Shown here: in pieces, positions 11,231 through 54,559 of the stretch
How the letters are laid out: the number at the start of each line of letters is the position of its first letter
How positions within the stretch are numbered: position 1 is the first letter of the stretch
Made by a program: the position numbers and the translations under genes
Notes under the pieces: generated by a model
Seen by the model: the letters and a program-made list of their open reading frames with translations, nothing else
What the model was told of the DNA's origin: nothing
Databases searched by the model: none
Source: a virus
Lineage: Duplodnaviria; Caudoviricetes
Virus record (IMG/VR): IMGVR_UViG_3300009071_000009
Location: 1 to 62,400 of that record
Reading direction: 5' to 3' (one strand)
Length of the DNA stretch: 62,400 nucleotides

Positions 11231-11232
11231 TT

Positions 11233-11962: not shown

Positions 11963-11985
11963 GTGCTAAAAGCCGGACGTGATTC

Positions 11986-37083: not shown

Positions 37084-37335
37084 ATGGCACGTCAAGTAAG
37101 AGCAGATTTAAGCGATCACTTTGAAGCATGGAGAGAAAAAACAAATCTTCTCTCTAATTACATGGGTGACTTAGATAGATTAATTACACCAGAAGATTCC
37201 GATCTTGTTGGTGCTATTAATTCTGCTTATACGTATAGGCAGAACTATTATACTGACACAACTGTAGTTTTGGTTAATTCAGCCGGCAGTATAATTAAAA
37301 CAATGTACGTTTATGATAGTGTAGGCGGCTTATAA
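37084..37335 (+). CDS. Small fibre-type structural protein (paralog A)
   Basis: DLSDHFEAWREKTN…GDL…DSDLVGAIN. Confidence 0.75.
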   Translation: MARQVRADLSDHFEAWREKTNLLSNYMGDLDRLITPEDSDLVGAINSAYTYRQNYYTDTTVVLVNSAGSIIKTMYVYDSVGGL

Positions 37336-37338
37336 ATA
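37331..37338 (+). promoter_or_regulatory. T4-type late promoter
   Basis: TATAAATA. Confidence 0.75.
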
Positions 37339-37360
37339 AAGAATAAAATGGGCGGATTAG

Positions 37361-37609
37361 ATGGCAAGAAAAATTTACGTAGATCTAAGCGATACAATCG
37401 ACGCTTGGCGGGAGAAAACAAATATTCTTGGTGCGAACAGTGGTGACTTAGATAATCTAATCACTACTGCGGATTCTGACCTCGTGGCTGCTATTAATGA
37501 AGTATATAATTATCAACCAATCCGGGATGAGAATTTGCGCATTAGAAGAGCCAATGGAACTGTTGCAAAAGATTTATACGGCTTTTCAATAGATTCATCT
37601 GGTGGTTAA
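37361..37609 (+). CDS. Small fibre-type structural protein (paralog B)
   Basis: DLSDTIDAWREKTN…GDL…DSDLVAAIN. Confidence 0.75.
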   Translation: MARKIYVDLSDTIDAWREKTNILGANSGDLDNLITTADSDLVAAINEVYNYQPIRDENLRIRRANGTVAKDLYGFSIDSSGG

Positions 37610-37614
37610 TTATT

Positions 37615-38613
37615 ATGGCAAGAAGAAGACCGCTTAGATTAGACGACAGCGATAACCTAATAGAAATGTCTCTTGATGACATGTTGGATGTTAGAAAACG
37701 TATAATTTCGTTATACGGTACTAATCCTTCTGTGTCATTAAGTGTTGTTCCATCTGGTGGTAATTTACCAGGCGCTCCACTATATGATAGAAGAACCATT
37801 TCCACTGGTGCTGTTTTAGCAGGAGATCCTCTTAAACCTTTAAGCACAATAGATGTTGCTTATAATAGAATCACACAAACAATAGATTCTGCGGGCGTAG
37901 CGCCGACATGCCCTGATACAAATCTTAGAGGATTTCCAGTTTATTTAAATGATAGCGATCACATTCAAGCGATGACTGATTCTGATTTTTATGATACTTT
38001 TATGGATTCAGCTATTGATACTCTTACTCTTACTGGGTGGGCAGACAGTACACAAGCCGGAACATATGTAGTATCAACTACTCAATTTGTAGAAGATGCA
38101 GAACTTGTATCAACAACTCCAATTTTTATTAATACTATAGCTGATGTTGAACAATTTAGTTCTGGCCCATTACCTGAAGATTCAGATCAACCATTAGAAT
38201 TAACTTCATATTATTTACATAGAATTAATCCAAACCAAGCGCCGAGCTTTAATTGTATTGTAATTGATGATTCTGATCATTTACAAGAATTAACAGATTC
38301 AGATTTTGATGAATGCCTTTCTAAATCTATTAGATATTCAGCCGCGCGGAGACCTTTAAATCAAATAAGGTATTCATTTGATAGTGGTAATATTAGAACT
38401 ACTGCTATATTAGATACGGTTATTGATTCAACTGGCGGCCCTGTTCTAGATTATGAAGGTAGCACATATGAATCTGAAATAGATAATGAGTACTCGCAGT
38501 ACGATTCTGCGTTGCCATATATAATAAGAGAGGATGGAACATATCGTCAAATTGTTCCAAGCGGCAAAGAAGCAATTTACAGAAGATATTATTTGAAAAT
38601 ACAAAAGGTGTAG
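37615..38613 (+). CDS. DS-rich putative structural protein, paralog of 44843-45823
   Basis: Shares PSV.LS.V.SGGNL, GTY.V.T, PI…T.A.V and terminal YYL motifs. Confidence 0.75.
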   Translation: MARRRPLRLDDSDNLIEMSLDDMLDVRKRIISLYGTNPSVSLSVVPSGGNLPGAPLYDRRTISTGAVLAGDPLKPLSTIDVAYNRITQTIDSAGVAPTCPDTNLRGFPVYLNDSDHIQAMTDSDFYDTFMDSAIDTLTLTGWADSTQAGTYVVSTTQFVEDAELVSTTPIFINTIADVEQFSSGPLPEDSDQPLELTSYYLHRINPNQAPSFNCIVIDDSDHLQELTDSDFDECLSKSIRYSAARRPLNQIRYSFDSGNIRTTAILDTVIDSTGGPVLDYEGSTYESEIDNEYSQYDSALPYIIREDGTYRQIVPSGKEAIYRRYYLKIQKV

Positions 38614-38619
38614 TTTATA

Positions 38620-39087
38620 ATGGCAGTATTTAGTGGAAAGATCATCGAAGCTAAATTCTTAGATCGTCAAAAAACAATGATAGAAATCTTATATAAAGAT
38701 GCAGATAAAATTGTGGCGCATTCTATAGAAGTTGATTGGGAACTAAAAGATTTTCATGATTTATTAGAAGAAATGGATCTTGAAGATATTGAAAGACAAA
38801 CAATCATTAGAAATCAAGACTTAGCTGAACAAAAGAAAGCCGCCGTGACGGCTACTGTTGAAGCTAGATTAGCAGACGGGTTTAAAGAAAAAGCAACTAC
38901 TATTGATGTGCTAATAAAAGAAGTAATTGCTAATAGACATGATGAAAGTTTCTTGTTTAGATTTAAAGCAGAAATATTTAAAATGGAAGAAGTGAGTCTT
39001 TCTTATAAGTGGTTTAAAAAAAGAAAAATACAAAAATCTAAAGATGCATTAGAAATTTTAGCTATATTATATAAAATTATAAAGTGA
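38620..39087 (+). CDS. Hypothetical protein heading the glycosyltransferase island
   Basis: 155-aa ORF. Confidence 0.75.
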   Translation: MAVFSGKIIEAKFLDRQKTMIEILYKDADKIVAHSIEVDWELKDFHDLLEEMDLEDIERQTIIRNQDLAEQKKAAVTATVEARLADGFKEKATTIDVLIKEVIANRHDESFLFRFKAEIFKMEEVSLSYKWFKKRKIQKSKDALEILAILYKIIK

Positions 39088-39094
39088 ACTCATA

Positions 39095-39844
39095 ATGACA
39101 AATAAAGTGATTTACCTCAGATGGGGTGAAAGATACACTGAAGAGCATGTATCACAATTATTCGATAAAGTAAACAAAAATTGTTCAGTTGATTTTGAAT
39201 TTACTACAATTGAAAGTGTTCATCTTGGCGATGAATTTGATTTACTCGCAAAGGGTCAGAGTTCTTGTTTTAGAGGAACGCAAGATCCTGAATCCTCAGT
39301 AACAGACAATCCTAATCAAGATTATTGTAGAGAAGACGCTGGTGGTATGGCTCACTGGCGTAAATATCTCATGTTTAATCGAGATGTTGAGCAATTTAGT
39401 AAAGAAGATACTTTATTGTATTTAGATCTAGATACACTTATCACTGGAGATTTAGCTTACTTTTTTGATTTAGATATGTCTAAACCATATATTGCTAGAA
39501 GTTGGCAATTTGAAATAGATGATTTATGGAGAAAGCTATATAATCTTAGAAGTTGTCCTTACTTTAATAGTTCAGTTTTAGTCTGGAAACCAGGACAATG
39601 TTTACCTGTTTTCGATGAAATGATGAAACAATATTGGAATATGATGTTATCATACGGGAGTAATGATAATTGGTTATTCCATAGATTTGGACCCCATACC
39701 TTTTCAGATGAAAATAGAAACTTTTTTAACTGGTTTCCAGAATACACTGTAGCATCTGATCCTCGTTTTGTTAAAGAAGGTGAAACAATTATTCACACTT
39801 TAGCTGGTTTAACTATGTCTGAAAAGAATAAATTATGTTTATAA
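39095..39844 (+). CDS. GT-A fold glycosyltransferase-like protein
   Basis: RWG..Y, YLDLD (DxD), FNSSVLVW. Confidence 0.75.
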   Translation: MTNKVIYLRWGERYTEEHVSQLFDKVNKNCSVDFEFTTIESVHLGDEFDLLAKGQSSCFRGTQDPESSVTDNPNQDYCREDAGGMAHWRKYLMFNRDVEQFSKEDTLLYLDLDTLITGDLAYFFDLDMSKPYIARSWQFEIDDLWRKLYNLRSCPYFNSSVLVWKPGQCLPVFDEMMKQYWNMMLSYGSNDNWLFHRFGPHTFSDENRNFFNWFPEYTVASDPRFVKEGETIIHTLAGLTMSEKNKLCL

Positions 39845-40485
39845 TAGATGATTACAATATTAATGATAGTTTAGTTGATAGCCTATTTGCATTAGATGAA
39901 AACTGTCCGTGGATGAAAGTTGATTTTTATAGATCATTATCAAAACGCAAATTACAAAAAAATATGTGGTTATATAATGAATTGACAAATATTATACATG
40001 ATCCAAATATAATGTTTAAAGTAAATTGGTTAGCACCAGGATTTTGTTATTATTCTTCTATAGTTTTAAATAAACTAAATTTCACAGATATAAAATTCTA
40101 TGATTATGATCCTTCAGTTAAATATATTAATTATCAATCTACAAAATTAATTAAAAGCGCTAATGTAGAACATATTATGTTAGATGTAGTGTTTGATAGA
40201 GAATTTGTTAGAAAAGATCCAGATTTAGTAGTCTGTCTTTCTACGTCATCTCTTGGTAATAGATTCTCTGAACTTAATGGAAATTACTATAATAATCCTT
40301 TATTTGCTTTAATGGGTTCCAATAAATGTAAACGAGGAAATATCAACGTTTTTGAGAGTATAGATAAATTCATAGAATCAACTGGAATTAAGAATGTTTT
40401 ATACTCTGGCGAAAAAAATATACATGGAGAAATTTATTATTTTGTAATAGGGCATAAGGAAGATGATGTATGCTACAAATTATAG
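39835..40485 (+). CDS. Degenerate class I SAM methyltransferase-like protein
   Basis: YDYDP, DVVFD, Y.VIG; paralogous to 41930-42550. Confidence 0.55.
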   Translation: MFIIDDYNINDSLVDSLFALDENCPWMKVDFYRSLSKRKLQKNMWLYNELTNIIHDPNIMFKVNWLAPGFCYYSSIVLNKLNFTDIKFYDYDPSVKYINYQSTKLIKSANVEHIMLDVVFDREFVRKDPDLVVCLSTSSLGNRFSELNGNYYNNPLFALMGSNKCKRGNINVFESIDKFIESTGIKNVLYSGEKNIHGEIYYFVIGHKEDDVCYKL

Positions 40486-41165
40486 TTTCTAAATGGGGCA
40501 CATTATACGGTGAAGAGTATATAGATCGTTTAAAAGAAAGAATTGAAAAAAATTGTAGTGTACCTTGGAACTTAACAGTTATAAGAGATCATGAAAATGG
40601 TTGGGGAGAATATAGTAAAAAACATTATAGAGGTGAAGGAGAACCAAAAGTAGTTCAAGGGGAAGGATTTCAAAACGATTACCATCATTTTGATTTAGGA
40701 GGAATTCCTTTATATAGAAAAATGTATCCATTTGCAATGGATGATCATTGTAAGCAAGATGATACAATTATGATGATGGACATAGATATGTTAATTACCG
40801 ACGATTTAGCATATTTTACAACTTTATCTACTGACAAACCTTGGATTCAATTTGACTATGATACACCAGAATGGGAACTTATGGATGATTATAAAAATCA
40901 AAATATAACTCCACTAAATAGTTCTGTAACAGTTTGGAAAAAAGGCCAAATGAACCCCGTATATGATTTTGTAAGTAAATATAAAAATGAAGTATTTTTT
41001 ACATATAGACGTGTTGATGCTTATCTTTGGTATTGCTGGGGAGTAAACGACTTTTTTAATTATTTACCAATAGAAGCAGTAGACTGGTACTATAAAGGAA
41101 CAAACGCTATTATAAGAAATATGGCAGGTGAAAAGATCGAGTTTAAAAATGAAATGGTTGTATAA
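40470..41165 (+). CDS. GT-A fold glycosyltransferase-like protein
   Basis: KWG..Y, MDID, LNSSVTVW. Confidence 0.75.
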   Translation: MLQIIVSKWGTLYGEEYIDRLKERIEKNCSVPWNLTVIRDHENGWGEYSKKHYRGEGEPKVVQGEGFQNDYHHFDLGGIPLYRKMYPFAMDDHCKQDDTIMMMDIDMLITDDLAYFTTLSTDKPWIQFDYDTPEWELMDDYKNQNITPLNSSVTVWKKGQMNPVYDFVSKYKNEVFFTYRRVDAYLWYCWGVNDFFNYLPIEAVDWYYKGTNAIIRNMAGEKIEFKNEMVV

Positions 41166-41943
41166 TGCAATGAATCCTAGACCCCCTAAAACGTCTACGA
41201 GCAAAAATAAAATAGTATGCGCTCGGTGGGGAAAACTTTATAGCGAAAGAGATATTGATGATTTATATGAAAAAGTGAAAAAGAATTGTTCAGTAGATTT
41301 TGATTTTGAAGTATTTGACAACTTTAAAAAATATAAACATTGGGAAAAAGCAAAGAAAAAACATTATAGAGCTTCTTTACAACCTGATGAAAGATTTGAT
41401 GCTGTACAAAAAGGATACCACCGCGATGATTTTGGGGGAATTCCTCATTATCGTAAAATCACCATGTTTGATCAAGACAAAAAATTTAATTCAGAAGACA
41501 CAATATTATATCTTGATTTAGACACAAATATTACTGGTGATTTAGCTTATTTTTTTGAAGAGCTTAATTATGCTAGACCATATTTGGTTTGGAATTATTG
41601 GTGGGACGAAAATGATGGTATTGAATGGAAGAGACAATACCATGTCACTCGTTGTCCACTATTTAATAGCTCAGTTATGGTTTGGAAACCAGGCCAAAAT
41701 GAAACTATATATAATTTTGTAGAGAATAATTTAGATGAGTGTTTTTATACTTATCCTTCTATGGATACATTTATGTTCCATAATTTTGGGCCACACAGCA
41801 ATTTAGAAAGAAGAAATCATTTTAATTATTTTGATGAAGGTATAGTTACTTCACAGCGAGTACTAAATAACAATAATCCTGGGATTGTTAATATGCTAGA
41901 AGGACTGAGCGTGGAAGAGAAAAATAAATATGTATCACATTGA
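41149..41943 (+). CDS. GT-A fold glycosyltransferase-like protein
   Basis: RWG..Y, YLDLD, FNSSVMVW. Confidence 0.75.
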   Translation: MKWLYNAMNPRPPKTSTSKNKIVCARWGKLYSERDIDDLYEKVKKNCSVDFDFEVFDNFKKYKHWEKAKKKHYRASLQPDERFDAVQKGYHRDDFGGIPHYRKITMFDQDKKFNSEDTILYLDLDTNITGDLAYFFEELNYARPYLVWNYWWDENDGIEWKRQYHVTRCPLFNSSVMVWKPGQNETIYNFVENNLDECFYTYPSMDTFMFHNFGPHSNLERRNHFNYFDEGIVTSQRVLNNNNPGIVNMLEGLSVEEKNKYVSH

Positions 41944-42550
41944 GAAAAAGGATGTAGATAGATTCCAAAAAATACTTGATCAACTTAAACACGCTTATCC
42001 ATGGGATGGGATGCATGCTAATATATGCGCGCAAGTAGGACCAATTGAATTTCAAATTCAAAAATGGTGGGCCGATAGAATAAATTGTATAGATCAAAGA
42101 GTAGCTATTTTAAATGGTGGTATTGGATATTTTTCAGTTCCATTTGCACATGAAATGGGAGCTAAAAAAATAGATGTATATGATATGGATCCAATCACGG
42201 AAAACTTAAGTTGGTATATAAATGGAAACTATAAACCGGAATTTTGTCACCACCAAAAAAACGTTATTTTTGATAGAAAAGAAATAAAAAATGCTGACGT
42301 ATACATAAATACTAGTTGTGAGCATAGCTATCATATGAGAGATATAATTCCACCAAATAGGCTCTGTGTAATGAGTGGAAATAATTTAACAGCAAGAGGA
42401 CATATAAATTTATTTAAAAATATGCGCAGCTTGAAAAAATCAGTAGGATTTAAAGATGTATTATATGAAACAACTATGGAATTTACATATCATGACGATA
42501 TGGGAAAAAGACCATACAAACAATTTTTAGTAATAGGGATAAAAGCATGA
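41930..42550 (+). CDS. Class I SAM methyltransferase-like protein
   Basis: ILNGGIG (motif I), YDMDP, INTSCEH. Confidence 0.7.
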   Translation: MYHIEKKDVDRFQKILDQLKHAYPWDGMHANICAQVGPIEFQIQKWWADRINCIDQRVAILNGGIGYFSVPFAHEMGAKKIDVYDMDPITENLSWYINGNYKPEFCHHQKNVIFDRKEIKNADVYINTSCEHSYHMRDIIPPNRLCVMSGNNLTARGHINLFKNMRSLKKSVGFKDVLYETTMEFTYHDDMGKRPYKQFLVIGIKA

Positions 42551-43449
42551 AGAAAAGAGTTATTTTTTCAATTTACATTGAAATCCCTGAAGCACTATTA
42601 GATGAGACTGGTTATTCAAAGCATGCGGTTAATAATACGCATAGAGGTGAAAGAGCTGGGGAAACTAAAGATAAACTAAAAGCATATAAAAACAGATTAA
42701 TGTGGAATCAAAAATGGTATGCAGATCAGTGTGATGCAGACTATCATATGTACACTTATGATAAACAGTTTTTAGAATATTATCGTTATTGCAAAAGTGT
42801 GCATGATAAGCTTCCAATGTATCACATTGTAAATTATTACAAAAATCATTTGCTTCAGGAACTAGCAAAAACTTATGATGAAATTTTTTATATGGATATT
42901 GATATTATTCCTAGAACAAAGGATAATATATTTGAAGTCCATAATATGAATAAGCTCTGGGCAAAAAATAATAATGACTTAGCTGAATGGAGTAAGCATT
43001 ATGATTTAACAAAATACAATAGTTGTGATAGAAATCCTGGTATTAAGTATTGGAATTGTTATGCTCTTTTAATTCAAAATGGGCATGACCCTGAAAATAA
43101 CGTTATTAACACCGGAACGATAATAGGCGGCAAAAAAGCAATTATGGCAATGGACTGGCAAGGAGAGTTTGAAGGATTAATTGCTGATTTGCTAAAACTA
43201 CAGGAAGATCAAGCAACTATGTTCCCTGAAGCTTTGCATTCTAGGTTTGCTTTTGATAATGAAACAATGTTTAGTTATTTAGTAAAAACTAAAAAATTGA
43301 AGTATGATACTTTAGATGATATTTGGCATGGAAGATTACCAGATGATGGAGTAGATCCAAGACATAAAATTATTCATGCAATTAATAAGAAATTTGAATT
43401 AATTTGGGATGATGTTCCATATGATGGAAGAACTTTAGGGAAATCATAA
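42547..43449 (+). CDS. GT-A fold glycosyltransferase-like protein
   Basis: YMDID, INTG, DNET, IIHAINK. Confidence 0.7.
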   Translation: MKKRVIFSIYIEIPEALLDETGYSKHAVNNTHRGERAGETKDKLKAYKNRLMWNQKWYADQCDADYHMYTYDKQFLEYYRYCKSVHDKLPMYHIVNYYKNHLLQELAKTYDEIFYMDIDIIPRTKDNIFEVHNMNKLWAKNNNDLAEWSKHYDLTKYNSCDRNPGIKYWNCYALLIQNGHDPENNVINTGTIIGGKKAIMAMDWQGEFEGLIADLLKLQEDQATMFPEALHSRFAFDNETMFSYLVKTKKLKYDTLDDIWHGRLPDDGVDPRHKIIHAINKKFELIWDDVPYDGRTLGKS

Positions 43450-44162
43450 TGCCTCTTACAGAACATTCTTCGGGTCAAACAAATCAAGCACAAAAAATAT
43501 TCGTTTTTAGAATAGGTAAAAAATATGGTGAAGAGTATGAAGAGTACTTGAATCAAAAACTAAAAGGAAGATATGATCTTATTTGGATAAGAAATCCATT
43601 AGATTCAAAAGTAGCGTTGCAATGGAATAAAATGTTTCTTATGAATTTAGATTATCCGGATCCTATTGTTGTAATGGATATTGATATATTATTAGAAAAT
43701 AATTTTCATGAATTATTTGAATATCCTATTCAAAAAGGTGAATTTTTGTCTATTCCGGCGTGGTGGAATGAAAGAGCTGGATATTTATCAAACGGCGGGT
43801 TTTTTAAATACTATCCTAAGGATTGTAAATATATTTTCGATGAATTTATTAATAATTCTAAACATTGGCAGTCACATTATATTAAAGAAGGCATTACTGT
43901 AGGACCAGTAAATGGTGAACAGTATTTTGTTGAAGATCAAGTTAAGAAAAACTTAGATTTAAAATTTGTTCCTAAGTCATGGGTAACTAGATGGACTAAC
44001 GATAGCAGTAAAAATATGAAAATAGCTGATAGATGGAGAAAAAAGGTGGAAGATACACAATTATTTTACCATGAAAAAAATAAATTTAACGAAAATGTTA
44101 AATTTGTTCATTTTACTACCTCTTTAAACAAGCCGCATGAATCTAAATTGTATAAATACTAG
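43449..44162 (+). CDS. GT-A fold glycosyltransferase-like protein
   Basis: WNKM, MDID, NGGF, GEQ, VHFT…KPH. Confidence 0.75.
   Translation: MPLTEHSSGQTNQAQKIFVFRIGKKYGEEYEEYLNQKLKGRYDLIWIRNPLDSKVALQWNKMFLMNLDYPDPIVVMDIDILLENNFHELFEYPIQKGEFLSIPAWWNERAGYLSNGGFFKYYPKDCKYIFDEFINNSKHWQSHYIKEGITVGPVNGEQYFVEDQVKKNLDLKFVPKSWVTRWTNDSSKNMKIADRWRKKVEDTQLFYHEKNKFNENVKFVHFTTSLNKPHESKLYKY
44151..44158 (+). promoter_or_regulatory. T4-type late promoter
   Basis: TATAAATA. Confidence 0.75.
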
Positions 44163-44186
44163 TAACCGTAAAAAAGAGGTTTCAGT

Positions 44187-44840
44187 ATGCCTAGAATTAT
44201 AGATTTACCATCAATTAGTGCAGATTCCGCCGATTCGGCAGATTGGCTCATTCTATACAACGTCGATGCCGCATCAAATGACGCTGTTAATAAAATTAGA
44301 GTTGATCAATTAGCTGAATTAACAGCAGGAGTTGCTGCTTATGGTGATTCTAATGTAGCATTATTTTTAGCTAATAGTGATTCAGCTAATCCTATACAAG
44401 TCGGACAAATGATCATTGATAGTGACTTGGTTGTTCAAGGCGATTTAAGAGTTTTAGGTACAACTACTACAGTTAGTCAAAGTGAATTAAGTATTTCAGA
44501 CAAGTTGCTAATATTAGCTGATAGTGCAGTAACAGATACTGATGCCGATGGTGGTGGTATTCAATTAAACGGCGCTAATGCAACAATTCTATATCAACAA
44601 TCAGATGATACTTGGAATTTTAATAAAAACGTATCTTATCCGAATCAATATTCATTAACAGACACTGATTCATTAAATGAAGGATCTACAAATTTATATT
44701 ACAGCGCTGCAAGATTTGATTCCGATTTAACTAATGCAGATTCGTCAATTACTTCTAGTCAATTAGCTTCTGCTGTTTCTTTAATCATTTATGATTCTAC
44801 TGGATCTGCTATAAAGACGTTGTATGGTGCAGGAGTTTAA
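44187..44840 (+). CDS. DS-rich fibre-type structural protein
   Basis: GDL.V.GTTTTV…I.DK..LA…ADGGGI fibre module; EGSTNLYY; 10 DS. Confidence 0.75.
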   Translation: MPRIIDLPSISADSADSADWLILYNVDAASNDAVNKIRVDQLAELTAGVAAYGDSNVALFLANSDSANPIQVGQMIIDSDLVVQGDLRVLGTTTTVSQSELSISDKLLILADSAVTDTDADGGGIQLNGANATILYQQSDDTWNFNKNVSYPNQYSLTDTDSLNEGSTNLYYSAARFDSDLTNADSSITSSQLASAVSLIIYDSTGSAIKTLYGAGV

Positions 44841-44842
44841 GC

Positions 44843-45823: not shown

Positions 45824-45827
45824 TTTT

Positions 45828-45835
45828 TATAAATA
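45828..45835 (+). promoter_or_regulatory. T4-type late promoter
   Basis: TATAAATA. Confidence 0.75.
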
Positions 45836-45892
45836 GAATAAAGAGGCAGGGGCGCTGTTCGCGTCCGACAAAGAAATCGGTAGGAGTATTTC

Positions 45893-46258
45893 ATGGCCCA
45901 ATATGAAGAATTCACCTTAGCTCAAGGTGCAGACATAGCAATTGAGCTACATTTAGTAGACGACCAAGGATCTCCAAAAGATCTAACAAACCATACGGTT
46001 TCAGCGCGAATACAAAAATCGTATTCATCTACAACTTTCACGGATTTCAATTCAATAATCGCAGCGCCGCCTTCTGACGGTATTGCTACTATATCATTAA
46101 ATAATACTCAAACTGAAGCTTTGGAAAAGGGACGTTATGTTTATGATGTAATGCTTTCTTTTGTTGATAGCGCAGGTGATACAATAGCTGAAAGACTATT
46201 AGAAGGAAGAGTTCAAGTAACACCAAATGTTACTCCAACTCCAGGAGGCAGCGAATAA
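45893..46258 (+). CDS. Small Ig-like virion protein
   Basis: QGAD…DLT…GRYVYDV…RLLEG…VTPNVT, common ahead of fibre genes in T4-like phages. Confidence 0.75.
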   Translation: MAQYEEFTLAQGADIAIELHLVDDQGSPKDLTNHTVSARIQKSYSSTTFTDFNSIIAAPPSDGIATISLNNTQTEALEKGRYVYDVMLSFVDSAGDTIAERLLEGRVQVTPNVTPTPGGSE

Positions 46259-49200
46259 ATGGTAACCGTAGTTAAAAAAGTTATAGTTGGAACACCAATT
46301 AGAAGAGTTACTTCTGGTGCCTTTAGTATTTTTAATATTGATGGTATTTCAGCTGAAGGATCTGCCCATAACGATCTTCTTGTTTTTGATTCATCTTCTG
46401 AAAAATTTACAAATCTAAGCACGCTCCGCGTTTTAAAAGTAGATGATTTTACAATTGATAGTAATACAATAAGTGCTACTGGCGATATATACATTTCTTC
46501 TACACAAGTTAATATCAACTCTCCAGTTGAAGCAACATCTTTTAAGCAATCTCAATTAGGCGCTTTTGATGATTCTGACTTAACTAGTAAACTTTATGTA
46601 GATACTGAAGTCGAAAGAGTTAAAAACGTTATCTTTACTACAGATGACGGATTTACTGATTCTGTTCAAATTTATGATGATGAAGATATTAAAGTAATTG
46701 GTGGAATTGGTGTTAAAACTTCTTCTACAAAAATAGGATCACAGTATCAATTAACAATTGATTTAGATAGTTCTGATATAGTAACTGGAACTTATGGTAC
46801 TGCTGACTCAGATAATCTTACAATACCTTTTCTTTCATTTGATTCATCTGGATTATTATCTGGTGTTACGGTATCAAATCCAATTACAACAGATAATGTT
46901 AGAGAAGGCGATTCTAATTTATATTATACTACAGCTAGATTTGATGATAGATTAGACGACAGTAGTTCTATTTCATCTATACGTAGTATGTTCTCTCCTG
47001 GCGGAGATATGGTATATGATTCAATTAACGGTACCTTTTCAATTAATGTTGTTGCTACTTATAACTCAGAAAATTTTGATTCCGATTTAGATGTTGCTTT
47101 AGCTAATAGCCAAAATATTGTATACGCTGATTCATTAAATTCATTCGATTTAACTGCTATAAATGAATCAAATGCTGGGACATTTGGATCAACAACTAAA
47201 ATTCCAATTCTTTCTGTTGATTCATATGGTAGAATTGATAGTATTAGTACTGCCTCAATTTCAACATCATTAGTAATTAGTGCTGATTCTGTTAGTGATA
47301 GTAGTGTAGATTCGATAAATCTTGGTACAGATGTTTTTAATATTTCTGGACAACCTGGTAATATCATTACAAGAGTAACAGATAGTGGTATTAATATACG
47401 ATTAGATAGCGGGCAAACCACACACAATTCTTTTTTAGGTGCCGTGCAACCAGGATTATATACGTATGGTGGCGGGTCGCAGGTAGCTCGAGTTTCAGTT
47501 GATGAGTTTGGTATTGTTAAACACATAGACGCAACTACAATACAGGCGCAAATAACTCTTAAAGATGAAAATAATGCAGAATATGATGCATTTACTACAC
47601 AAAATGACTTAAAGTTTGTAGGCGGGAACGGGATTGATGTTGATGTTAGTGGCGGCTTTTCAGGTGGCAACCCCAGCGCTGATGCAGTAATTACTGTTTC
47701 AATTGATTCATCAGAATTAAGTGCAATAGATAGTGTATCTTGGCTGACTGATTCTAATAAATTACAAATTAGTACTTCTGATGGAGCAAGATTTGTTCCA
47801 CAAATTAATTACTTCGGTGATAGTGTAATATTCGACGATACACTACGCATGAATACCTCTAAACAAGCAGTTTGGGGTACAAAAGGAAATACTGAGCAAG
47901 GTGTATCTGGATCATTTAGTTCAATATATATGATGCCAGGTGATAGTGAAGGAAGTGGTTGGTGGTTCTATAATAATTCACCTGGAATGAAGTTTTATTC
48001 TAAGAGTGAAAATAGTCAAACAGGTGCTGATAGTACTGGGTCCATTGAATTCCTGACTTATTATCGCAATGAAGGTTCCTTTTACGAAGATATGGTTATC
48101 AGTAATGGGGTTTCATTAAAGCATAAAGGTCAGACCGCATTAGCTATTATAGGGCCACAAAATGGCGCTAATGATAGCACGAATGTTACAAGGTTTTATT
48201 CCCATGCTATTCCTTATACTGGTTTGGGTGTAAACTATGATTTAGGTGATTCTGAAAATCCATGGAGAGATTTATATCTTTCTGGACAAACAATACATTT
48301 AGGTGAAATTCAACTAAAAGATAGCGGTGGTGATTTTGCAATTAGATCTGCAGATGGATCTCCTGGTAATATAACAGCAGCTCATATAAATGCTGATTCT
48401 GGTTATATTAGCCAATTTAGAGTCGATTCTGCACAAATTACTAATTATACTGCAACTACGGGATTTGTTGGATTACTAACTGTTGATTCTATAAATGTAA
48501 CAGATCTTAACATTAACACTGCAATAGTAACAAATGGTATTACAGCAGACTCTGCTAAAATAGAAGGTACTTTGACTGCAAGAGATATAAATGTAGACTC
48601 TGGATCTATTAGTCAATTTACAGCAGACTCAGCTTCAATTACTACACTGAATACTACAACAATATCTGGCAATTCTGCAACATTTACAGACATAGTAAGA
48701 TCTGGAACAACTGTTACTGCCGGCGCATATGGTTCAGGTTCACTGGTTCCAGTTCTTACGGTTGATTCTTCAGGTTTTGTTGATAGTATCGGAACAGTTT
48801 CAGTTGCGGGTGTAACAGGATTTGCATGGGATTCGGCAACTTCTACTGCTACAATTAGTACAGCTGATGGTGGATCATTTGCATCAACAATTAATGGTTT
48901 CCATAAAATTACCAGTCATCTAATACCATCAATTGCTAATACATACGATCTTGGTAACGATTCATATAGATGGAATGATCTCTATCTAAATGGAACTAGT
49001 TTGTATCTTGGAGATACCATTATAGAAGATAGTGCTGGTGGCTTTGTCTTTATGCACAATGACGGTGGCGCAGCAAGTCCTGTAGGAGTTACTGTACCGC
49101 AAACTAATTATATTACTTCGACACCACCTACTGGTAACAGTAGCATCACTGCGCAAAGAATGATATTTAATCCAACTGGTACGATATTACAGATAGGTGG

Positions 49201-52200
49201 AATATATACACCTTTGACATATTATGATTTATCTACAGGTTGGGACTTAAGCACTGCAACTGTAGATCAAAATAATTCTTGGACAAATTCTGGCACTCCT
49301 TGGAGTTCAAATGTTAATTTTGATATTGGAAGTCTAAGCTTTAATGCTGATGGTTCAAAGGTTTTCACTGGACGGTATAACAGTTCTATATTCCAATTAG
49401 TATTACACGCCTATGACCTAGGCACAAATTACGTAATTGAAAGCGTAGGAAATAATCCTTCTCAATCCGTAAACGTTAATGTTACTTCATTAAATACAGC
49501 TTGGAATGACAGCAAACCTGCTGGATGGTCGAGTGATTTCTATTCAGCCGGGAGAGATTTTAAAGTAAGGATTATTGATAATGGTAATAAAATTGCCATG
49601 TTTACGGGTGAAAGTAGTAGCTTCTTAGACCTAATTGTTCTTCCTTTAACTACTCCTTATGACTTAAGTACTATTGACTATACTCCGGCCAATGTAAAAT
49701 GTTTTGATTTCGAATATGAATTAACAAATAATATTGTGCCAGGTAGATATACTAGTACGAAAATTTACGGCGAAGATTTCCAATTTAGTAACGACGGCAC
49801 GAAGCTTTGGCTGACTGTTTATGAAAGAGTTGGAGCTTCAAGTCCTTATACTCATGAAATGGATTTCTATCAATTTAATTTATCTACTGCCTATGATATC
49901 GATCCAAGTAGCTTATCTTATAATAGTTCGGTAAGATTAGGAGAATCTGCTTCTTCTCCTTATTATAGATTAGGTGAAAGAATAGATGTTTTCCATGTAG
50001 AAGAGTCAGAAAATAAAATATTCATGGTAGTAAGAAATGAATATTTAAATTCTGGTGGAAGTCAGTTGCTAGCAACTAGCGCAATTGTAGAATTTAGTTA
50101 TGGTAGCCCAGCAATTATGGCTCTAACTAAAATGGGTCACGTAAAAGCAGATTCAGCTCAAATTTCCTTACTAAACGCTGATTCAGGAACTATTGGTCAA
50201 TTTACAGCTGACTCAGCTTCAATTACTACACTAAATACTACAACCGGTAATATAAGTCAGTTTACATCAGATTCAGCTTCGATTACTAATTTAAATGTAT
50301 CTACTCTTAATGCTCCAAGTTTAGATGTTGATTCATCACACATTACTACACTTTCAACAAATAGATTTAATGTTGATTCTGCTAGAGCTGGATTTATACA
50401 GTTTAATGTAGGCGAATATGATGATAACGTTAAACCAACAACTACAGAAGGCGCAGTTTATTATAATTCTGGACCAGATACACTTGTCTTTAAATCTTCT
50501 TCTGGTAGTCCAATTAAAATTGGTCAAGAAGAAGTTACTAGAGTTTATAATAACACTATTTCAACCATACCAAAAGGAAAAGCTGTTTATGTAACAGGAG
50601 CAGCAAATGATTTCCCAACTATTGGTTTATCTAGATCAGACGATATAAACACTGTCTATAAAACAGTAGGTATTACAAAAGATGATATATCACCATCTTC
50701 ATTTGGTTTAGTAGTAAATAGAGGCTTATTTGGTGGAGTAGACACTACAAACTTCTCAGCAGGTGATATTTTACATGTTTCTCCTGATAGTGCTGGAGAG
50801 TTTACTGCATCAAACCCAGTATATCCTAACTTTGCTTTCCAAGTTGGTACAGTTTTAGTTGTAGACTCTGCTGGAGGAAATGCAGTAGGTGGATGTATTC
50901 AAATTGAAATTGTAAGAGAAGTTTTTGAAACTATTAGAGTTTCTGGTGATGGTAGAATCGATGCCAACCTAACAATCGGTGGTAACTTAAACGTTTTAGG
51001 TACGGAAACAACAACTTCAATTTCTAACTTAAATGTTGCTGACACTTTCATATATTTAGGCGCCGGTGACACTATTGGCGCTGGTGGAACAAACTTTAAT
51101 GGTACTGGTGACCAAAACGCAACATTTATTGGCCATTATAAAGGTGATAGCGACGAAACATTTAGAGTACGTGTTTCGGGTGTTGGTGGTGATACTCTTG
51201 AATGGGCACTTGATAGTTGGGGTGCAGGTACCTTAACATTCGATTCAGCTGGTGGTCCAGCAACATGGAATTTAACTACTGATGGTCAAATTGTACCTTT
51301 AAAATATGGCATTTCAATTGATTTTGATAATCCCACTGGCCATGATTTAGGAGATAGTTGGAATGGCGATGCATCACCAATTAATGTTCAAATTGGTCTT
51401 GCTGGTAACTATAATGAGCCAGATGATATTTATCGCCATGCTGGTTTGTTTAGAGACATTTCAGATGGAGTCTGGAAATTCTTTGATAATTATGTTCCAG
51501 AACCAGAAGGTCAGATAAATGTAGCTGCACCTACATTTTCTTTTGCAGATATGAAAGCAAAAGATATTACTGGCGCAGTAATTGAAGCAACTAATGGATT
51601 CACTGGTAATGTTACTGGTACAGTTTCAGATATATCTAATCACACTACTACAAACCTAACTGAAGGTGATAACCTTTATTATACTACCTCAAGAGCTGAT
51701 TCGGATTTTGATGTTAGACTTGCAACTAAGTCTACAACAAACCTAACTGAAGGTGATAATTTATACTATACATTAGCTAGAGCAGATAGCGCAGCTCGTA
51801 GCGCTTTAAGTGTAGATGATCAAAGCGGGGATGGCTCGCTATCTTATGATTCAGCAGCTGGGAAGTTTACTTATATAGGACCTTCTCCAGCTGAGGTTAG
51901 AGCTCATCTTTCAGAAGGTAATGGAATCACTTATGATTCGGCTTCTGGGCAGATAACTATAACAAATACCGGAGTAAATTCAGGTACATATGGTTCAAGC
52001 ACTGAAATTCCTGTATTTACAGTAAATACTAGAGGTCAAATAGATTCAGTTGGAACGGTTGCAGTTGCAGGAGTCACTGGATTTGTATATGATTCATCAA
52101 GCGGAAATCTAACTATTTCTACTGCTGATGGCGCAACTTTTAGTGATAGTATTAACTTAAATCCATTTACTACAAATGAACTAGTTGAAGGTAGCGATAA

Positions 52201-53668
52201 TCTTTATTATACTAGAGCTAGATTTGATTCTGCATTAGGTGATAATACATCAATTACTACAATTAGAGGTTATTTTAATACCGGAGGTGATTTATCATAC
52301 GATTCTACTACTGGTAAATTCTCAATTGACGTAGAAGAAATTTATACCGCTGGTAACTTTGATTCTGATTTTAGAGTTAGATTATTAACTACTACAACTG
52401 ATTCAATTGGCGAAGGAAGTACAAATTTATATTACACTACATCGAGAGCTGACTCAGACTTTGATGTTAGACTTACAACTAAGTCTACTACTGATTTAAG
52501 TGAAGGAAATAATCTTTATTATACCACAACAAGAGCTGACTCAGACTTTGATGTTAGACTTGGTATAGCTGGATCTATTGCTACGATTAGAAGTTATTTC
52601 TCAGCTAGTGGTGATTTATCATACGATTCTACTACTGGCGATTTTAGTTTTGATGTAGAACAAGTTTATACAAAAGCTAATTTTGATAGTGATCTTGGTG
52701 ATGCACTAATTGGCGGAAAGGGAATATCTTACGATTCATCAACAGATACTATTAATATTGATTCGGCTGAATTCTCTGCAATGTTCACTACTACAGATTT
52801 GCCAGAAGGTGATAATTTATACTATACATTAGCTAGAGTAGATTCGGCCTTTGATGTTAGACTTGCAACTAAGTCTACTACAAACCTAACTGAAGGTGAT
52901 AACCTTTACTACACTACATCGAGAGCTGACTCAGACTTTGATGTTAGACTTGCAACTAAATCTACTACTGATATTACAGAAGGAACAAATTTATATTATA
53001 CTCAGACACGGACTGATTCAGATATTATTTCTAGATTAAAAGACGTAAATGAATTTGATGCCGATTCAGTTGGTACTAGAGAATTAATTGTAGAAGCTGA
53101 TGATTCTGCTGGCGATTTAACTATTAAAAATGGAATTATTCATAGAGAATATCATGGAAGAACTGGTGGTGATTCCACATCTGAAAGAGTTAACGTATAT
53201 GTTAGAACAGCGGCAAAAACAAGCAATCACAGATTCTATCAAAAAGGATCGGCAGCTGCTTACTGGTTATCATATGATTCAGCTGATATAGGCACAGCTA
53301 GAGAAATTCAAGCGCCATATTTAGAAATGACTCCAGGTGTTAAATACAGATTTTGGACATTCCACAATTCAAATTCAACACATGATGTTAGATTTTACTA
53401 TGAAAACGATAAACATGAAAGATTAGAACCATCAAGTCCAGGTGTAGATATTACATATAATGGAACAGCTGGTCAGGCCGGTGCGTATTCAGAAATTTTA
53501 GTTCATGATGGCGGCCCGCAATCCTTAGCATATCAATGTATCAATCATCAATATATGGGTAATCATCTTAACTCAAAATCATTAGCATTATCAAGATTAT
53601 ATCAAACAGATTCGGCTATTAATGTTGTTGGAACATTAAACGCAATAATTGACGGAGGTACGTTCTAA
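46259..53668 (+). CDS. Giant mosaic tail fibre/adhesin, DS-rich
   Basis: 2469 aa; GTYGS..IP..TV, YDLG….WRDLYL, EG.NLYYT repeats, C-terminal YQC..H..MG and IDGGTF. Confidence 0.85.
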   Translation: MVTVVKKVIVGTPIRRVTSGAFSIFNIDGISAEGSAHNDLLVFDSSSEKFTNLSTLRVLKVDDFTIDSNTISATGDIYISSTQVNINSPVEATSFKQSQLGAFDDSDLTSKLYVDTEVERVKNVIFTTDDGFTDSVQIYDDEDIKVIGGIGVKTSSTKIGSQYQLTIDLDSSDIVTGTYGTADSDNLTIPFLSFDSSGLLSGVTVSNPITTDNVREGDSNLYYTTARFDDRLDDSSSISSIRSMFSPGGDMVYDSINGTFSINVVATYNSENFDSDLDVALANSQNIVYADSLNSFDLTAINESNAGTFGSTTKIPILSVDSYGRIDSISTASISTSLVISADSVSDSSVDSINLGTDVFNISGQPGNIITRVTDSGINIRLDSGQTTHNSFLGAVQPGLYTYGGGSQVARVSVDEFGIVKHIDATTIQAQITLKDENNAEYDAFTTQNDLKFVGGNGIDVDVSGGFSGGNPSADAVITVSIDSSELSAIDSVSWLTDSNKLQISTSDGARFVPQINYFGDSVIFDDTLRMNTSKQAVWGTKGNTEQGVSGSFSSIYMMPGDSEGSGWWFYNNSPGMKFYSKSENSQTGADSTGSIEFLTYYRNEGSFYEDMVISNGVSLKHKGQTALAIIGPQNGANDSTNVTRFYSHAIPYTGLGVNYDLGDSENPWRDLYLSGQTIHLGEIQLKDSGGDFAIRSADGSPGNITAAHINADSGYISQFRVDSAQITNYTATTGFVGLLTVDSINVTDLNINTAIVTNGITADSAKIEGTLTARDINVDSGSISQFTADSASITTLNTTTISGNSATFTDIVRSGTTVTAGAYGSGSLVPVLTVDSSGFVDSIGTVSVAGVTGFAWDSATSTATISTADGGSFASTINGFHKITSHLIPSIANTYDLGNDSYRWNDLYLNGTSLYLGDTIIEDSAGGFVFMHNDGGAASPVGVTVPQTNYITSTPPTGNSSITAQRMIFNPTGTILQIGGIYTPLTYYDLSTGWDLSTATVDQNNSWTNSGTPWSSNVNFDIGSLSFNADGSKVFTGRYNSSIFQLVLHAYDLGTNYVIESVGNNPSQSVNVNVTSLNTAWNDSKPAGWSSDFYSAGRDFKVRIIDNGNKIAMFTGESSSFLDLIVLPLTTPYDLSTIDYTPANVKCFDFEYELTNNIVPGRYTSTKIYGEDFQFSNDGTKLWLTVYERVGASSPYTHEMDFYQFNLSTAYDIDPSSLSYNSSVRLGESASSPYYRLGERIDVFHVEESENKIFMVVRNEYLNSGGSQLLATSAIVEFSYGSPAIMALTKMGHVKADSAQISLLNADSGTIGQFTADSASITTLNTTTGNISQFTSDSASITNLNVSTLNAPSLDVDSSHITTLSTNRFNVDSARAGFIQFNVGEYDDNVKPTTTEGAVYYNSGPDTLVFKSSSGSPIKIGQEEVTRVYNNTISTIPKGKAVYVTGAANDFPTIGLSRSDDINTVYKTVGITKDDISPSSFGLVVNRGLFGGVDTTNFSAGDILHVSPDSAGEFTASNPVYPNFAFQVGTVLVVDSAGGNAVGGCIQIEIVREVFETIRVSGDGRIDANLTIGGNLNVLGTETTTSISNLNVADTFIYLGAGDTIGAGGTNFNGTGDQNATFIGHYKGDSDETFRVRVSGVGGDTLEWALDSWGAGTLTFDSAGGPATWNLTTDGQIVPLKYGISIDFDNPTGHDLGDSWNGDASPINVQIGLAGNYNEPDDIYRHAGLFRDISDGVWKFFDNYVPEPEGQINVAAPTFSFADMKAKDITGAVIEATNGFTGNVTGTVSDISNHTTTNLTEGDNLYYTTSRADSDFDVRLATKSTTNLTEGDNLYYTLARADSAARSALSVDDQSGDGSLSYDSAAGKFTYIGPSPAEVRAHLSEGNGITYDSASGQITITNTGVNSGTYGSSTEIPVFTVNTRGQIDSVGTVAVAGVTGFVYDSSSGNLTISTADGATFSDSINLNPFTTNELVEGSDNLYYTRARFDSALGDNTSITTIRGYFNTGGDLSYDSTTGKFSIDVEEIYTAGNFDSDFRVRLLTTTTDSIGEGSTNLYYTTSRADSDFDVRLTTKSTTDLSEGNNLYYTTTRADSDFDVRLGIAGSIATIRSYFSASGDLSYDSTTGDFSFDVEQVYTKANFDSDLGDALIGGKGISYDSSTDTINIDSAEFSAMFTTTDLPEGDNLYYTLARVDSAFDVRLATKSTTNLTEGDNLYYTTSRADSDFDVRLATKSTTDITEGTNLYYTQTRTDSDIISRLKDVNEFDADSVGTRELIVEADDSAGDLTIKNGIIHREYHGRTGGDSTSERVNVYVRTAAKTSNHRFYQKGSAAAYWLSYDSADIGTAREIQAPYLEMTPGVKYRFWTFHNSNSTHDVRFYYENDKHERLEPSSPGVDITYNGTAGQAGAYSEILVHDGGPQSLAYQCINHQYMGNHLNSKSLALSRLYQTDSAINVVGTLNAIIDGGTF
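51650..53020 (+). repeat. Dispersed 87-bp (29-aa) repeats EG.NLYYT..RADSDFDVRLATKSTT
   Basis: Near-identical nucleotide copies, e.g. at ~51662, 51749, 52805, 52892, 52979. Confidence 0.9.
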
Positions 53669-53671
53669 GCG

Positions 53672-53679
53672 TATAAATA
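53672..53679 (+). promoter_or_regulatory. T4-type late promoter
   Basis: TATAAATA. Confidence 0.75.
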
Positions 53680-53731
53680 GATTAAAGTCGAGTTTTTACT
53701 CATATATGGCTTCCTTTATTAAGGTGTAACT

Positions 53732-54559
53732 ATGGCAGCAAATATTAAATTAAAAAGATCCGCGGTTGCGGGTAAACAGCCTTTAGTGGCAGACATCGAT
53801 TACGGTGAGTTAGCATTAAACTATGCTGACGGTATTCTCTATTACAAAAATAATATTGATGGTATTGCATCAATATCTGGTGGTGGAGCAGACGCAGATA
53901 GCGCAGCTCCTACTGGCGCAGCTTTAAGAGATGGCCAACTATGGTGGGATGCTACAAATGGTAGACTTAAGATTTATTATGACGACGGTGCTGATTCTGC
54001 TCAATGGGTAGACGCATCTCCTGCTGGTAGAGGTTACACTGGTTCGGCCGGCGCAATAACATTTAGTGAAACTGCTCCAGCAAATCCTTCAGATGGTCAA
54101 ATCTGGTATAATTCAACAACAGGAAAATCATATCTCTATTATGAAAATCAAAGTAATAGAGCATGGATTTTATTTGCAGATCCAACTGTAACAGATGGTG
54201 ACACTGGTTTTACTGGATCTGTAGGTTATGTTGGCTCACAGGGAACAATTTCACCTAGAAACATTTCACTTCTTAATCCTTCAGGTGGTGAAGAAATAAC
54301 TTTACTTAGAACTACCAATGCAATATCAGTTTCAGAAGTAAGAGCTGTAATTAGAGGAAGTAGTTGTGAATACGCAATAAAATATGATACTGATAGAAGT
54401 GCAGCTGGAACTACAGTAGCAACAGAAACAACCACAAACACAACTACAGGATCGACTCCTGTAATTTCTAATGCTTCTATTCCTGCTGGAAATTATGTTT
54501 GGTTAGAAGTTGTTGCTGTGAATAGCTTAACTGAAATTTCAGTAAATGTTACATTTTAA
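53732..54559 (+). CDS. Fibre-associated structural protein
   Basis: IKLKRS…P…GELALN..DG.LY.K N-terminal fibre domain; G.LWW…G.L.IYY modules; GYTGS. Confidence 0.75.
   Translation: MAANIKLKRSAVAGKQPLVADIDYGELALNYADGILYYKNNIDGIASISGGGADADSAAPTGAALRDGQLWWDATNGRLKIYYDDGADSAQWVDASPAGRGYTGSAGAITFSETAPANPSDGQIWYNSTTGKSYLYYENQSNRAWILFADPTVTDGDTGFTGSVGYVGSQGTISPRNISLLNPSGGEEITLLRTTNAISVSEVRAVIRGSSCEYAIKYDTDRSAAGTTVATETTTNTTTGSTPVISNASIPAGNYVWLEVVAVNSLTEISVNVTF

Follow-up and report, generated by a model that had tools for sequence, protein, structure and literature searches.

Why do several structural proteins of a marine phage carry far more Asp-Ser (DS) dipeptides than their composition predicts, and do the glycosyltransferase (GT) and methyltransferase (MT) genes lying among them act on these sites? 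We addressed this question in the IMG/VR virus record IMGVR_UViG_3300009071_000009, which was analysed over its whole length of 62,400 bases (hereafter, the window). An earlier note on this DNA had proposed that the phage decorates surface-exposed DS sites with a glycan, in the manner of Bacteroidetes O-glycosylation, and that its outer proteins have accumulated sequons. We find that O-glycosylation of virion proteins at the serine of DS, catalysed by the enzymes of this GT/MT island, is the best single reading of the locus, if still short of an even chance. The parts of the earlier proposal that stand are the protein-level excess, its restriction to one phage lineage, and the predicted soluble GT and MT proteins encoded between late promoter-like motifs; the link to the Bacteroidetes sequon and the generality of the excess among outer proteins do not.

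Judging from its gene content, the window is a genome fragment of an uncultured marine T4-like (Kyanoviridae-like) myovirus, and it represents ~35% of the estimated genome. It encodes T4-type gp32, a gp5-like spike, gp25, gp6, a baseplate wedge subunit, gp8, a giant DUF4815 protein, and several fibres, with Pfam matches for gp8, the baseplate wedge subunit, the gp5 C-terminal domain, gp32, and a T4 baseplate protein. The nearest named phages by gp6 (tblastn) are Phage C48C1 (38.7%), Pelagibacter phage HTVC008M (33%), and cyanophages (~31%). Among 50,697 phage records, we found no near-identical DNA for the region and no tblastn match at E 1e-3 for GTc, the third GT of the island.

A strong and specific excess of Asp-Ser in five virion proteins

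The number of DS dipeptides in each protein was compared with that in 2000 composition-keeping shuffles of the same protein. The tail fibre of 2469 amino acids (aa; 46259-53668) contains 77 DS where 26.2 are expected (z 10.9), the 332-aa protein at 37615 contains 12 (expected 3.7, z 4.8), and the 217-aa protein at 44187 contains 10 (expected 3.3, z 4.1); for each of the three, 0 of 2000 shuffles scored as high. The excess is smaller in gp8 (9 versus 3.9, z 2.9, 18/2000 shuffles) and in a 320-aa wedge protein at 29574 that was absent from the earlier list (6 versus 2.0, z 3.1, 16/2000), and gp6 contains no DS where 3.9 are expected. The hand counts in the earlier note (77, 12, 10, 9, and 0 in gp6) proved exact; the string SADSADSAD, with which the 217-aa protein was said to start, is present at residues 10-18 rather than at the very start.

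When all dipeptides with an expected count of at least 2 were ranked, DS stood out most, both in the fibre (z 12.1) and in the pool of the other four enriched proteins (37 versus 12.9, z 7.3). Related pairs behave differently: SD, ES, and NS are not enriched in the DS-rich proteins, and DT is the most depleted pair of the fibre (9 versus 24.1, z -3.5). The earlier note had also argued, from the use of both TCN and AGY serine codons, that selection acts on the protein. This holds, because the serine codon mix is the same after Asp as elsewhere: TCN codons account for 81 of the 114 serines that follow Asp and for 227 of the 318 others, 71% each.

Sorted by the similarity of their flanks, the 77 sites of the fibre form 50-56 groups, one of which unites 11 similar sites. 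Masking 668 aa of repeats leaves 44 DS where 17.2 are expected (z 7.3), and nine of the ten 250-aa blocks of the fibre are enriched, the exception being block 1001-1250. Neither composition nor repeat expansion, which the earlier note had named as possible explanations, accounts for these counts. The residue before Asp is typically small or hydrophobic, and the serine is often followed by Ala (30/114) or Asp (24/114), so that DSD occurs 24 times in the five enriched proteins against 3.5 expected.

The DS-rich genes are also enriched in GANTC (65 versus 23.9 in the fibre gene), because Asp followed by a TCN serine codon always spells this sequence. A DNA-level cause of the DS excess was considered and rejected, as the serine codon mix is unchanged after Asp and ES is not enriched. 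The GANTC excess appears to be a by-product, which would become relevant if the host or the phage methylates or cuts this sequence, the site of CcrM-type methylation.

DS sites are retained in number while their positions change

In a comparison with a 90%-identical relative, 57 of 63 DS pairs were kept, where 75% would be expected from the other Asp and Ser residues (p 0.002). The DS sites of the window gp8 are kept in relatives down to ~50% identity and are missing from C48C1, HTVC008M, and a third outgroup. Across 94 gp8 sequences, DS occurs in at least one sequence at 85 alignment columns, and distant DS-rich gp8 proteins (7-10 DS) share only 0-1 of the nine window sites, a turnover somewhat inflated by alignment shifts of a few columns. 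The DS columns of the 332-aa family are variable as well. In the fibre, cyanophage homologues of the repeats read RADARV, RADTRI, RADSRV, or YNSSTG where the window fibre reads RADSDF or YDSxTG, and the cyanophage fibres with homologous repeats are not enriched in DS (21 versus 19.0 and 11 versus 15.5).

To judge from these alignments, DS is not demanded by the folds, whose homologues use DA, DT, or NS, and the excess is specific to one lineage. A number of sites that is held while their positions drift, with parallel origins in unrelated folds of a single lineage, points to something that reads DS as such.

An island of predicted glycosyltransferases and methyltransferases

Homology and fold comparisons confirmed that the interval 39095-44162 contains the five GT-like and two MT-like genes that the earlier note had recognized. 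The island is best described as encoding five soluble GT-A/GT8-type (retaining-type) enzymes (GTa, GTb, GTc, X, and Y) and two class-I MT-like proteins (Ma and Mb), as predicted by profile searches and one structure model (Table 1). GTa matches the Pfam GT8 family at E 4.5e-4 with 20.3 bits, under the cut-off of 24.3, and PF01501 is carried by 6 of 28 metagenomic homologues. The family profile built on GTa, GTb, and GTc (A1) matches GlyE, a GT8 enzyme, in the PDB (E 2e-6, over only ~50 residues around the DxD motif) and LgtC (E 7e-3). The DxD motif is invariant in the A1 alignment (D111, D113) and is also found in X and Y. For Y, hhalign comparison of A1 with A5 gave a probability of 88.8% (E 2.5e-6, 123 columns including DxD).

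X has no Pfam match, its hhalign probability against the GT8-like profile is only 3%, and neither the X nor the Y profile matched any PDB sequence below E 0.05. The AF2 model of X (pLDDT 80.9), the island GT for which a GT-A fold was modelled, matches LARGE1 (6.8e-7), XXYLT1 (6e-6), and the capsid-glycosylating GT of PBCV-1 (2.5e-5) in a Foldseek search of the PDB. LgtC and GlyE are matched too; the GT-A retaining enzymes lie at E 7e-7 to 3e-4, with modest TM scores (0.31-0.47, and 0.38-0.58 in the PBCV-1 comparison).

The MT family profile (A3) matches spermidine synthases in the PDB (E 9e-4, 105 positions). The viral atlas clusters nearest to Mb are named class I S-adenosylmethionine (SAM)-dependent methyltransferase (score 0.98) and may include Mb's own cluster. 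The MT consensus reads SGxGxY...YDxDP, the Gly-rich loop being degenerate in Ma. No membrane segment was detected in the eight island proteins (highest KD(19) 1.01), and no GT-B initiating enzyme was found in the window.

Late promoter-like motifs surround the island

Nine exact copies of the motif TATAAATA are present in the window, each of them 0-57 nucleotides (nt) upstream of the start of a same-strand open reading frame (ORF), a zone that ~5% of positions would occupy by chance; one copy lies 26 nt upstream of the gp8 start. This type of motif is established as a late promoter in T4. No exact copy is present among the island genes of the window. In related loci, a copy was found at or just after the end of the island in 11 of 11 examined, and an additional copy within it in 5 of 11. 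The same motif with one mismatch occurs at chance frequency and was discarded as uninformative.

We infer that the window motifs are late promoters and that the island, downstream of the 332-aa gene, lies between two of them; its genes would then be expressed late, together with the virion genes. GT genes beside structural genes, and expressed with them, are what a phage virion glycosylation system should have, and the position of the island between these motifs agrees with this.

Distribution of the island and of the DS excess among relatives

The island is found at the same place, with structural genes beside it, in loci L004-L022 and L025-L027, which encode a GT 40-96% identical to GTa; loci L023 and L024 contain GT and MT-like genes only. 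The same proteins are DS-enriched in these island-bearing relatives, with the exceptions of L011-L013 and L022. In L011-L013, enrichment is seen in the fibre (27-30 versus ~10) and not in gp8 or the 332-aa homologue. In the gp8 tree, the DS-rich clade comprises 81 of the 94 sequences; the basal lines, including HTVC008M and G006, are DS-poor, as are some nested lines (the C48C1 group, L128, and L011).

Longer records gave a similar picture. G001 (98 kb) has two proteins with 49 DS versus 14.3 and 29 versus 6.5 and an island of four GT/MT genes among its fibre genes, and G008 (142 kb) is DS-rich with an island. G002 (144 kb, 87% complete) has three DS-rich fibres (46 versus 16.7, 23 versus 7.7, and 22 versus 7.1) and a separate glycan cluster at least ~25 kb away, beyond other tail and baseplate genes (Table 1). 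This cluster contains a sulfotransferase, GT8-like genes, three GT25 genes, a HAD phosphatase-nucleotidyltransferase fusion, and an NAD-dependent epimerase. The DS-rich G001 and G008 share parts of this cluster, which were not found in the DS-poor G006; the 62-kb window may not extend to the equivalent region. All four of the longest DS-rich records (the window, G001, G002, and G008) contain GT8-like or GT25 genes, and neither PF01501 nor PF01755 had a match in the DS-poor G006 (131 kb, 81% complete), C48C1, or HTVC008M (both complete). Loci retrieved through gp8, and hence without bias towards GTs, were compared where 9.9 kb or more was available downstream: a gene of the GT or MT families is present in 9 of the 22 DS-rich loci and in none of the 9 DS-poor ones (one-sided Fisher p 0.025, a count that ignores relatedness).

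Evidence against glycosylation and alternative explanations

A number of observations weigh against O-glycosylation of DS sites by the island enzymes. The DS excess is not general to outer proteins: what the earlier note had said of outer virion proteins holds for five of them, whereas no enrichment is seen in the DUF4815 giant or in at least four of the fibre-like proteins. Proteins at expectation include the DUF4815 protein at 31936 (9 versus 10.0), a 1756-aa protein at 55902 (17 versus 14.4), the fibre-like 275-aa and 318-aa proteins (2 versus 1.8 and 1 versus 1.8), and the collagen-like fibre at 61176 (3 versus 3.0). Nor is DS avoided in the rest of the proteome, where observed/expected ratios are 0.87-0.96 in DS-rich and 0.68-0.99 in DS-poor genomes.

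The distribution among phages raises further difficulties. Only four independent pairs could be formed, in which the GT state was concordant in ~1.8, opposite in 0, and without difference in ~2.2 (sign test not significant), and the co-distribution is mostly that of one clade versus its outgroups. Locus L022 has the island, yet its 332-aa homologue contains 0 DS and its 678-aa fibre only 4 versus 5.6, and L028 has three of the families and is DS-poor. Conversely, C48C1 lacks GT8 and GT25, yet its 1568-aa protein contains 31 DS versus 17.6. In G002, the DS-rich fibres lie in a structural module without an island; a relative lacking the island there is thus as DS-rich, a case that the earlier note had listed against itself, although a glycan cluster is present elsewhere in the genome. 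Loci L029-L080, which are probably cyanophage-like and distant, have related GT8-like and MT-like genes beside fibre genes and no DS excess in the 17 loci examined, where no other dipeptide stands out beyond the usual G/S/T pairs. These genes code for a large protein of several domains (830-910 aa, one part of it GT8-like), a smaller GT8-like protein (272 aa), and an MT-like protein, and are divergent from the fibre-assembly and fibre genes (for example, L032:10452-15121 and L039:7495-10813). A clear homologue of X was not seen in this group. Taken with G002, these loci give a mixed outcome for the refuting conditions that the earlier note had set.

A side observation concerns the C48C1 group, in which a 1567-1568-aa 'wedge-fibre connector' is DS-rich and gp8 of the same phages is not (L134:3391-8094, L081:16306-21012). 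The L134 homologue contains 55 DS versus 20.8, on a contig too short to judge GTs.

In the main alternative, DS would be an unmodified, lineage-specific structural idiom, an Asx-turn or helix N-cap in which a small residue follows Asp and which may stabilize turns or bind seawater cations, with the cassette sitting in an accessory-gene hotspot and acting on some other acceptor (host lipopolysaccharide (LPS), capsule intermediates, or free or lipid-linked oligosaccharide). We regard this as a serious possibility, though a minority one. In the AF2 model of the 332-aa protein (pLDDT 82.1), DS lies at beta-hairpin turns and helix N-termini, and loops hold 8 of the 12 DS serines versus 11 of the 22 other serines; these positions have been counted for glycosylation too, since the modelled turn and cap sites appear exposed, yet they also structurally favour Asp and a small residue. 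The replacements at DS columns that keep Asp, mainly DA (20) and DG (15) and rarely DT (6), also fit a purely structural motif of this kind. At one site of gp8, 5 of the 13 basal sequences that are DS-poor nevertheless read DS. The phages with GTs and no DS excess and the DS-rich G002 module without an island point the same way. GT8 and GT25 are families best known from LPS and lipooligosaccharide synthesis, the second cluster of G002 resembles a polysaccharide pathway, and in the account of a cyanophage with 13 GTs such genes are read as host-surface or DNA modifiers (PMC12801897). What a structural idiom explains less well is the parallel rise of DS in unrelated folds (the gp8 globule, the wedge protein, and three kinds of fibre repeat) that elsewhere use DA, DT, or NS, and the turnover of gp8 sites while their number stays at two to three times expectation. 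The eight island proteins, moreover, lack membrane segments and are encoded between late motifs beside virion genes rather than among early genes, and the three DS-poor relatives are entirely without GT8 and GT25.

Selection on DS itself does not say what reads DS, and the reader could be another agent: phosphorylation, methylation after isoaspartate formation, a host enzyme, or a host ligand or metal ion bound directly by the Asp-Ser surface. None of the GT families follows DS richness without exceptions, and one MT atlas row is of the protein-L-isoaspartate O-methyltransferase type (score 0.88), a lead at most. However, the module yielded neither a kinase nor any other enzyme that modifies proteins, and the GTs and MT-like proteins are the sole enzymes conserved beside the DS-rich genes. 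We consider this explanation unlikely. We consider it very improbable that the GTs modify phage DNA, as in the glucosylation of T4 hydroxymethylcytosine, and have no relation to DS, even though some phage GTs protect DNA and this possibility has been raised for marine phage GTs (PMC12801897). The island enzymes are of the GT-A/GT8 type and lie between late motifs among fibre genes, and no hydroxymethylase was found among the ten upstream ORFs scanned, in a window covering about a third of the genome. The DNA glucosyltransferases of T4 fold differently and are encoded by early genes. Finally, practically no credence can be given to the view that the excess is an artefact, whether of composition, of codon bias, or of a recent expansion of repeats. 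The proteins are indeed rich in Asp and Ser, and the fibre has tandem repeats and its group of 11 similarly flanked sites, but this explanation was tested and not supported: the excess withstands shuffling (z 10.9-12.1 in the fibre) and repeat masking, the serine codon mix is unaltered, and gp8 and the wedge protein are enriched without being repetitive.

Proposed mechanism and significance

If the O-glycosylation reading is right, the island enzymes would be synthesized in the cytoplasm at the late stage, alongside the fibre and the peripheral baseplate proteins. Their product would be a short glycan, perhaps O-methylated, attached to serines in Asp-Ser turns and helix caps that are exposed. 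The targets would be a defined subset of these proteins: the gp7-like wedge protein, gp8, the 332-aa and 217-aa proteins, and the 2469-aa fibre. In this mechanism, the serine of DS would be the acceptor and the island enzymes the writers, selection would keep many DS sites while their positions drift, and the glycan could serve in shielding, stability, or the tuning of adsorption. A wider proposal, that a large clade of uncultured marine T4-like phages (81 of 94 gp8 sequences) O-glycosylates its own fibres and peripheral baseplate proteins in the cytoplasm through a minimal Asp-Ser sequon, with GT8-type writers, methyl-trimmed sugars, and sites that behave like a viral glycan shield, is tentative, at about one chance in three.

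If these phages do glycosylate their fibres, they would provide the first example of a sequon-like code for protein glycosylation among tailed phages whose hosts are Gram-negative or marine. We know of no earlier report of such a code in these phages, and the work that we found on phage virion glycosylation concerns mycobacteriophages and giant viruses. The receptor-binding proteins of abundant ocean phages, and hence their adsorbing surface, would then not be described by sequence alone. Part of the many marine phage GT genes, usually taken as host-surface or DNA modifiers, would gain a function, and DS density would provide a simple marker for glycosylated virion proteins in metagenomes. Even without a sugar, a strong, lineage-wide, protein-level dipeptide excess with site turnover needs an explanation.

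Table 1 Coordinates of the island, the DS-rich and neighbouring genes, and the G002 glycan cluster (positions in the window unless preceded by a locus name)
Feature	Positions	Strand	Remarks
Island
GTa, GT8-like glycosyltransferase, LDLD motif	39095..39844	+	paralogue of GTb and GTc
Ma, class-I Rossmann methyltransferase-like	39835..40485	+	blastp to Mb E 5e-8
GTb, GT8-like glycosyltransferase, DID motif	40470..41165	+	31% identity to GTa, 35% to GTc
GTc, GT8-like glycosyltransferase, LDLD motif	41128..41943	+	40% identity to GTa, E 8e-59
Mb, class-I SAM-dependent methyltransferase-like	41930..42550	+	paralogue of Ma
X, predicted GT-A-fold retaining-type glycosyltransferase, DID motif	42547..43449	+	structure model
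Y, distant GT8-like family paralogue, DID motif	43449..44162	+	hhalign
Candidate late promoters
T4-type motif TATAAATA	37331..37338	+	22 nt before the 82-aa gene (37361); last exact motif before the island
T4-type motif TATAAATA	44151..44158	+	in the last codons of Y, 28 nt before the 217-aa gene
DS-rich and neighbouring virion genes
320-aa baseplate wedge subunit (gp7-like part)	29574..30536	+	Pfam Baseplate_wedge PF23786, E 4.5e-13
gp8 baseplate wedge protein	30566..31924	+	Pfam Phage-Gp8, E 7.5e-10
Two small paralogous virion structural proteins, 83 and 82 aa	37084..37609	+	2 DS each
332-aa protein, internal duplication, no known fold	37615..38613	+	directly upstream of the island
155-aa helical, highly charged protein	38620..39087	+	between the 332-aa gene and the first GT
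217-aa short fibre-like virion protein	44187..44840	+	PHROG virion structural protein families, E 5e-7 to 9e-4
326-aa paralogue of the 332-aa protein	44843..45823	+	aligned with the 332-aa family
121-aa tail-fibre assembly protein-like gene	45893..46258	+	PHROG 3304 'L-shaped tail fiber protein assembly', E 5e-17; directly before the fibre
2469-aa tail fibre	46259..53668	+	C-terminal repeats homologous to cyanophage structural and fibre proteins
275-aa tail-fibre-like protein	53732..54559	+	PHROG tail fibre families, E 3e-15
Upstream modification-type genes
Radical SAM protein	4092-4940
NodU/CmcH-type carbamoyltransferase	5325-6686		two domains, E 1e-46 and 1e-36
GDSL/SGNH hydrolase-like protein	7488-8468		weak match
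PhyH-type dioxygenase	11986-12744
G002 glycan cluster	L168:442-6167, L168:11873-12493, L168:16658-17497, L170:17591-18529

Neighbouring genes and host leads

The 83-aa and 82-aa proteins upstream of the 332-aa gene have a common N-terminal MAR..DLSD..AWREKTN motif and 14 non-identical homologues at the same position in related loci; this position is annotated as 'virion structural protein' in cyanophages and HTVC008M. The fold of the 332-aa protein had no PDB match (best Foldseek E 0.51), and a VIA search of 48,161 chains gave a best Z of 5.2, under the tool's usual chance level. This protein and its 326-aa paralogue flank the island, and they differ in DS content: the former, with 12, is among the most DS-dense proteins, whereas the latter is not enriched (1 versus 2.7). 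The 155-aa protein has no Pfam or PHROG match; 16 non-identical homologues occur in related loci and one in G008, always at the same position, and it could be an adaptor or chaperone of the cassette.

Modification-type genes are found upstream of the structural genes (4092-12744; Table 1). Carbamoyltransferases and SGNH enzymes often decorate sugars, and these genes could be part of the same glycan chemistry as the island. A 519-aa protein with an Amidase_2 (N-acetylmuramoyl-L-alanine amidase) domain adjoins the gp5-like spike protein (23495-25054 and 25063-27102), and the last ORF (61176-62399), the collagen-repeat tail fibre, runs off the end of the window.

The nearest named phages infect Pelagibacter and cyanobacteria. 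An attempt to infer the host from the window yielded four tRNA genes (Arg-TCT, Leu-TAA, Met-CAT, and Pro-TGG, clustered at 935-1268) and no other clue. Among 185,579 species genomes, the sole match was L195, an 8.9-kb contig (8.6 kb examined) of a metagenome-assembled genome labelled uncultured Lewinella, which contains only GT and MT island genes and has a GC content of 32.7%. It is probably a phage fragment binned, possibly wrongly, with a Bacteroidota genome and would be a weak host lead at most.

Comparison with known glycosylation systems

The general O-glycosylation motif of Bacteroidetes is given in one description as D-(S/T)-(A/I/L/V/M/T) (PMC8550257). The sites of the window resemble it in that Asp directly precedes the hydroxy residue and that Ala is the commonest third residue. 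However, the connection that the earlier note drew to this sequon breaks down at both its second and third positions. In the five enriched proteins, DT[AILVMT] occurs 9 times versus 12.8 expected, and only 55 of the 114 DS sites (48%) fit the third-residue rule against a background of 38%; DS followed by other residues is equally enriched (59 versus 23.8, z 7.6). Bacteroidetes O-glycosylation acts on exported proteins outside the cytoplasm. Here, by contrast, the substrates would be virion parts and the enzymes are predicted to be soluble.

Nearer in mechanism is the staphylococcal SdgA/SdgB system, described as cytoplasmic GTs that glycosylate serines adjoining Asp in SD-repeat proteins, with protection as the stated role (PMC3794999, PMC8561734). 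The likeness lies in the proposed addition of a sugar to a serine next to Asp by cytoplasmic enzymes. The staphylococcal substrates, however, are long unbroken SD repeats, whereas isolated DS sites are spread here across folded domains, the short run in the 217-aa protein being the only one of its kind. The Sdg enzymes also belong to a different fold class. Among characterized enzymes, GlyE of Streptococcus pneumoniae (PDB 5gvv), a GT-A DxD enzyme that acts on a protein-bound glycan, is the best PDB sequence match of GTa, GTb, and GTc; GlyE extends a glycan that another enzyme has begun on serine-rich repeat adhesins.

Viruses provide two further parallels. Chlorovirus PBCV-1 likewise encodes several GTs, and the X model matches its capsid GT A64R (PDB 2p6w, 2p72, 2p73); it is a giant virus of eukaryotes, though, and the match indicates a fold class rather than an orthologue. 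PBCV-1 glycans are N-linked at non-canonical sites, and a methyltransferase activity also contributes to them. In mycobacteriophages, Freeman et al. reportedly demonstrated by chemical means, in Cell Host Microbe in 2023, that virions are glycosylated, with capsid and tail-tube subunits modified. The system proposed here, known from its sequence, would differ from theirs in acting on the fibres and the baseplate periphery, in its over-represented D-S motif, and in its GT8-type GTs. The two nevertheless resemble each other in that phage GT genes adjoin structural genes and in the proposed cytoplasmic action of their products on the phage's own virion proteins.

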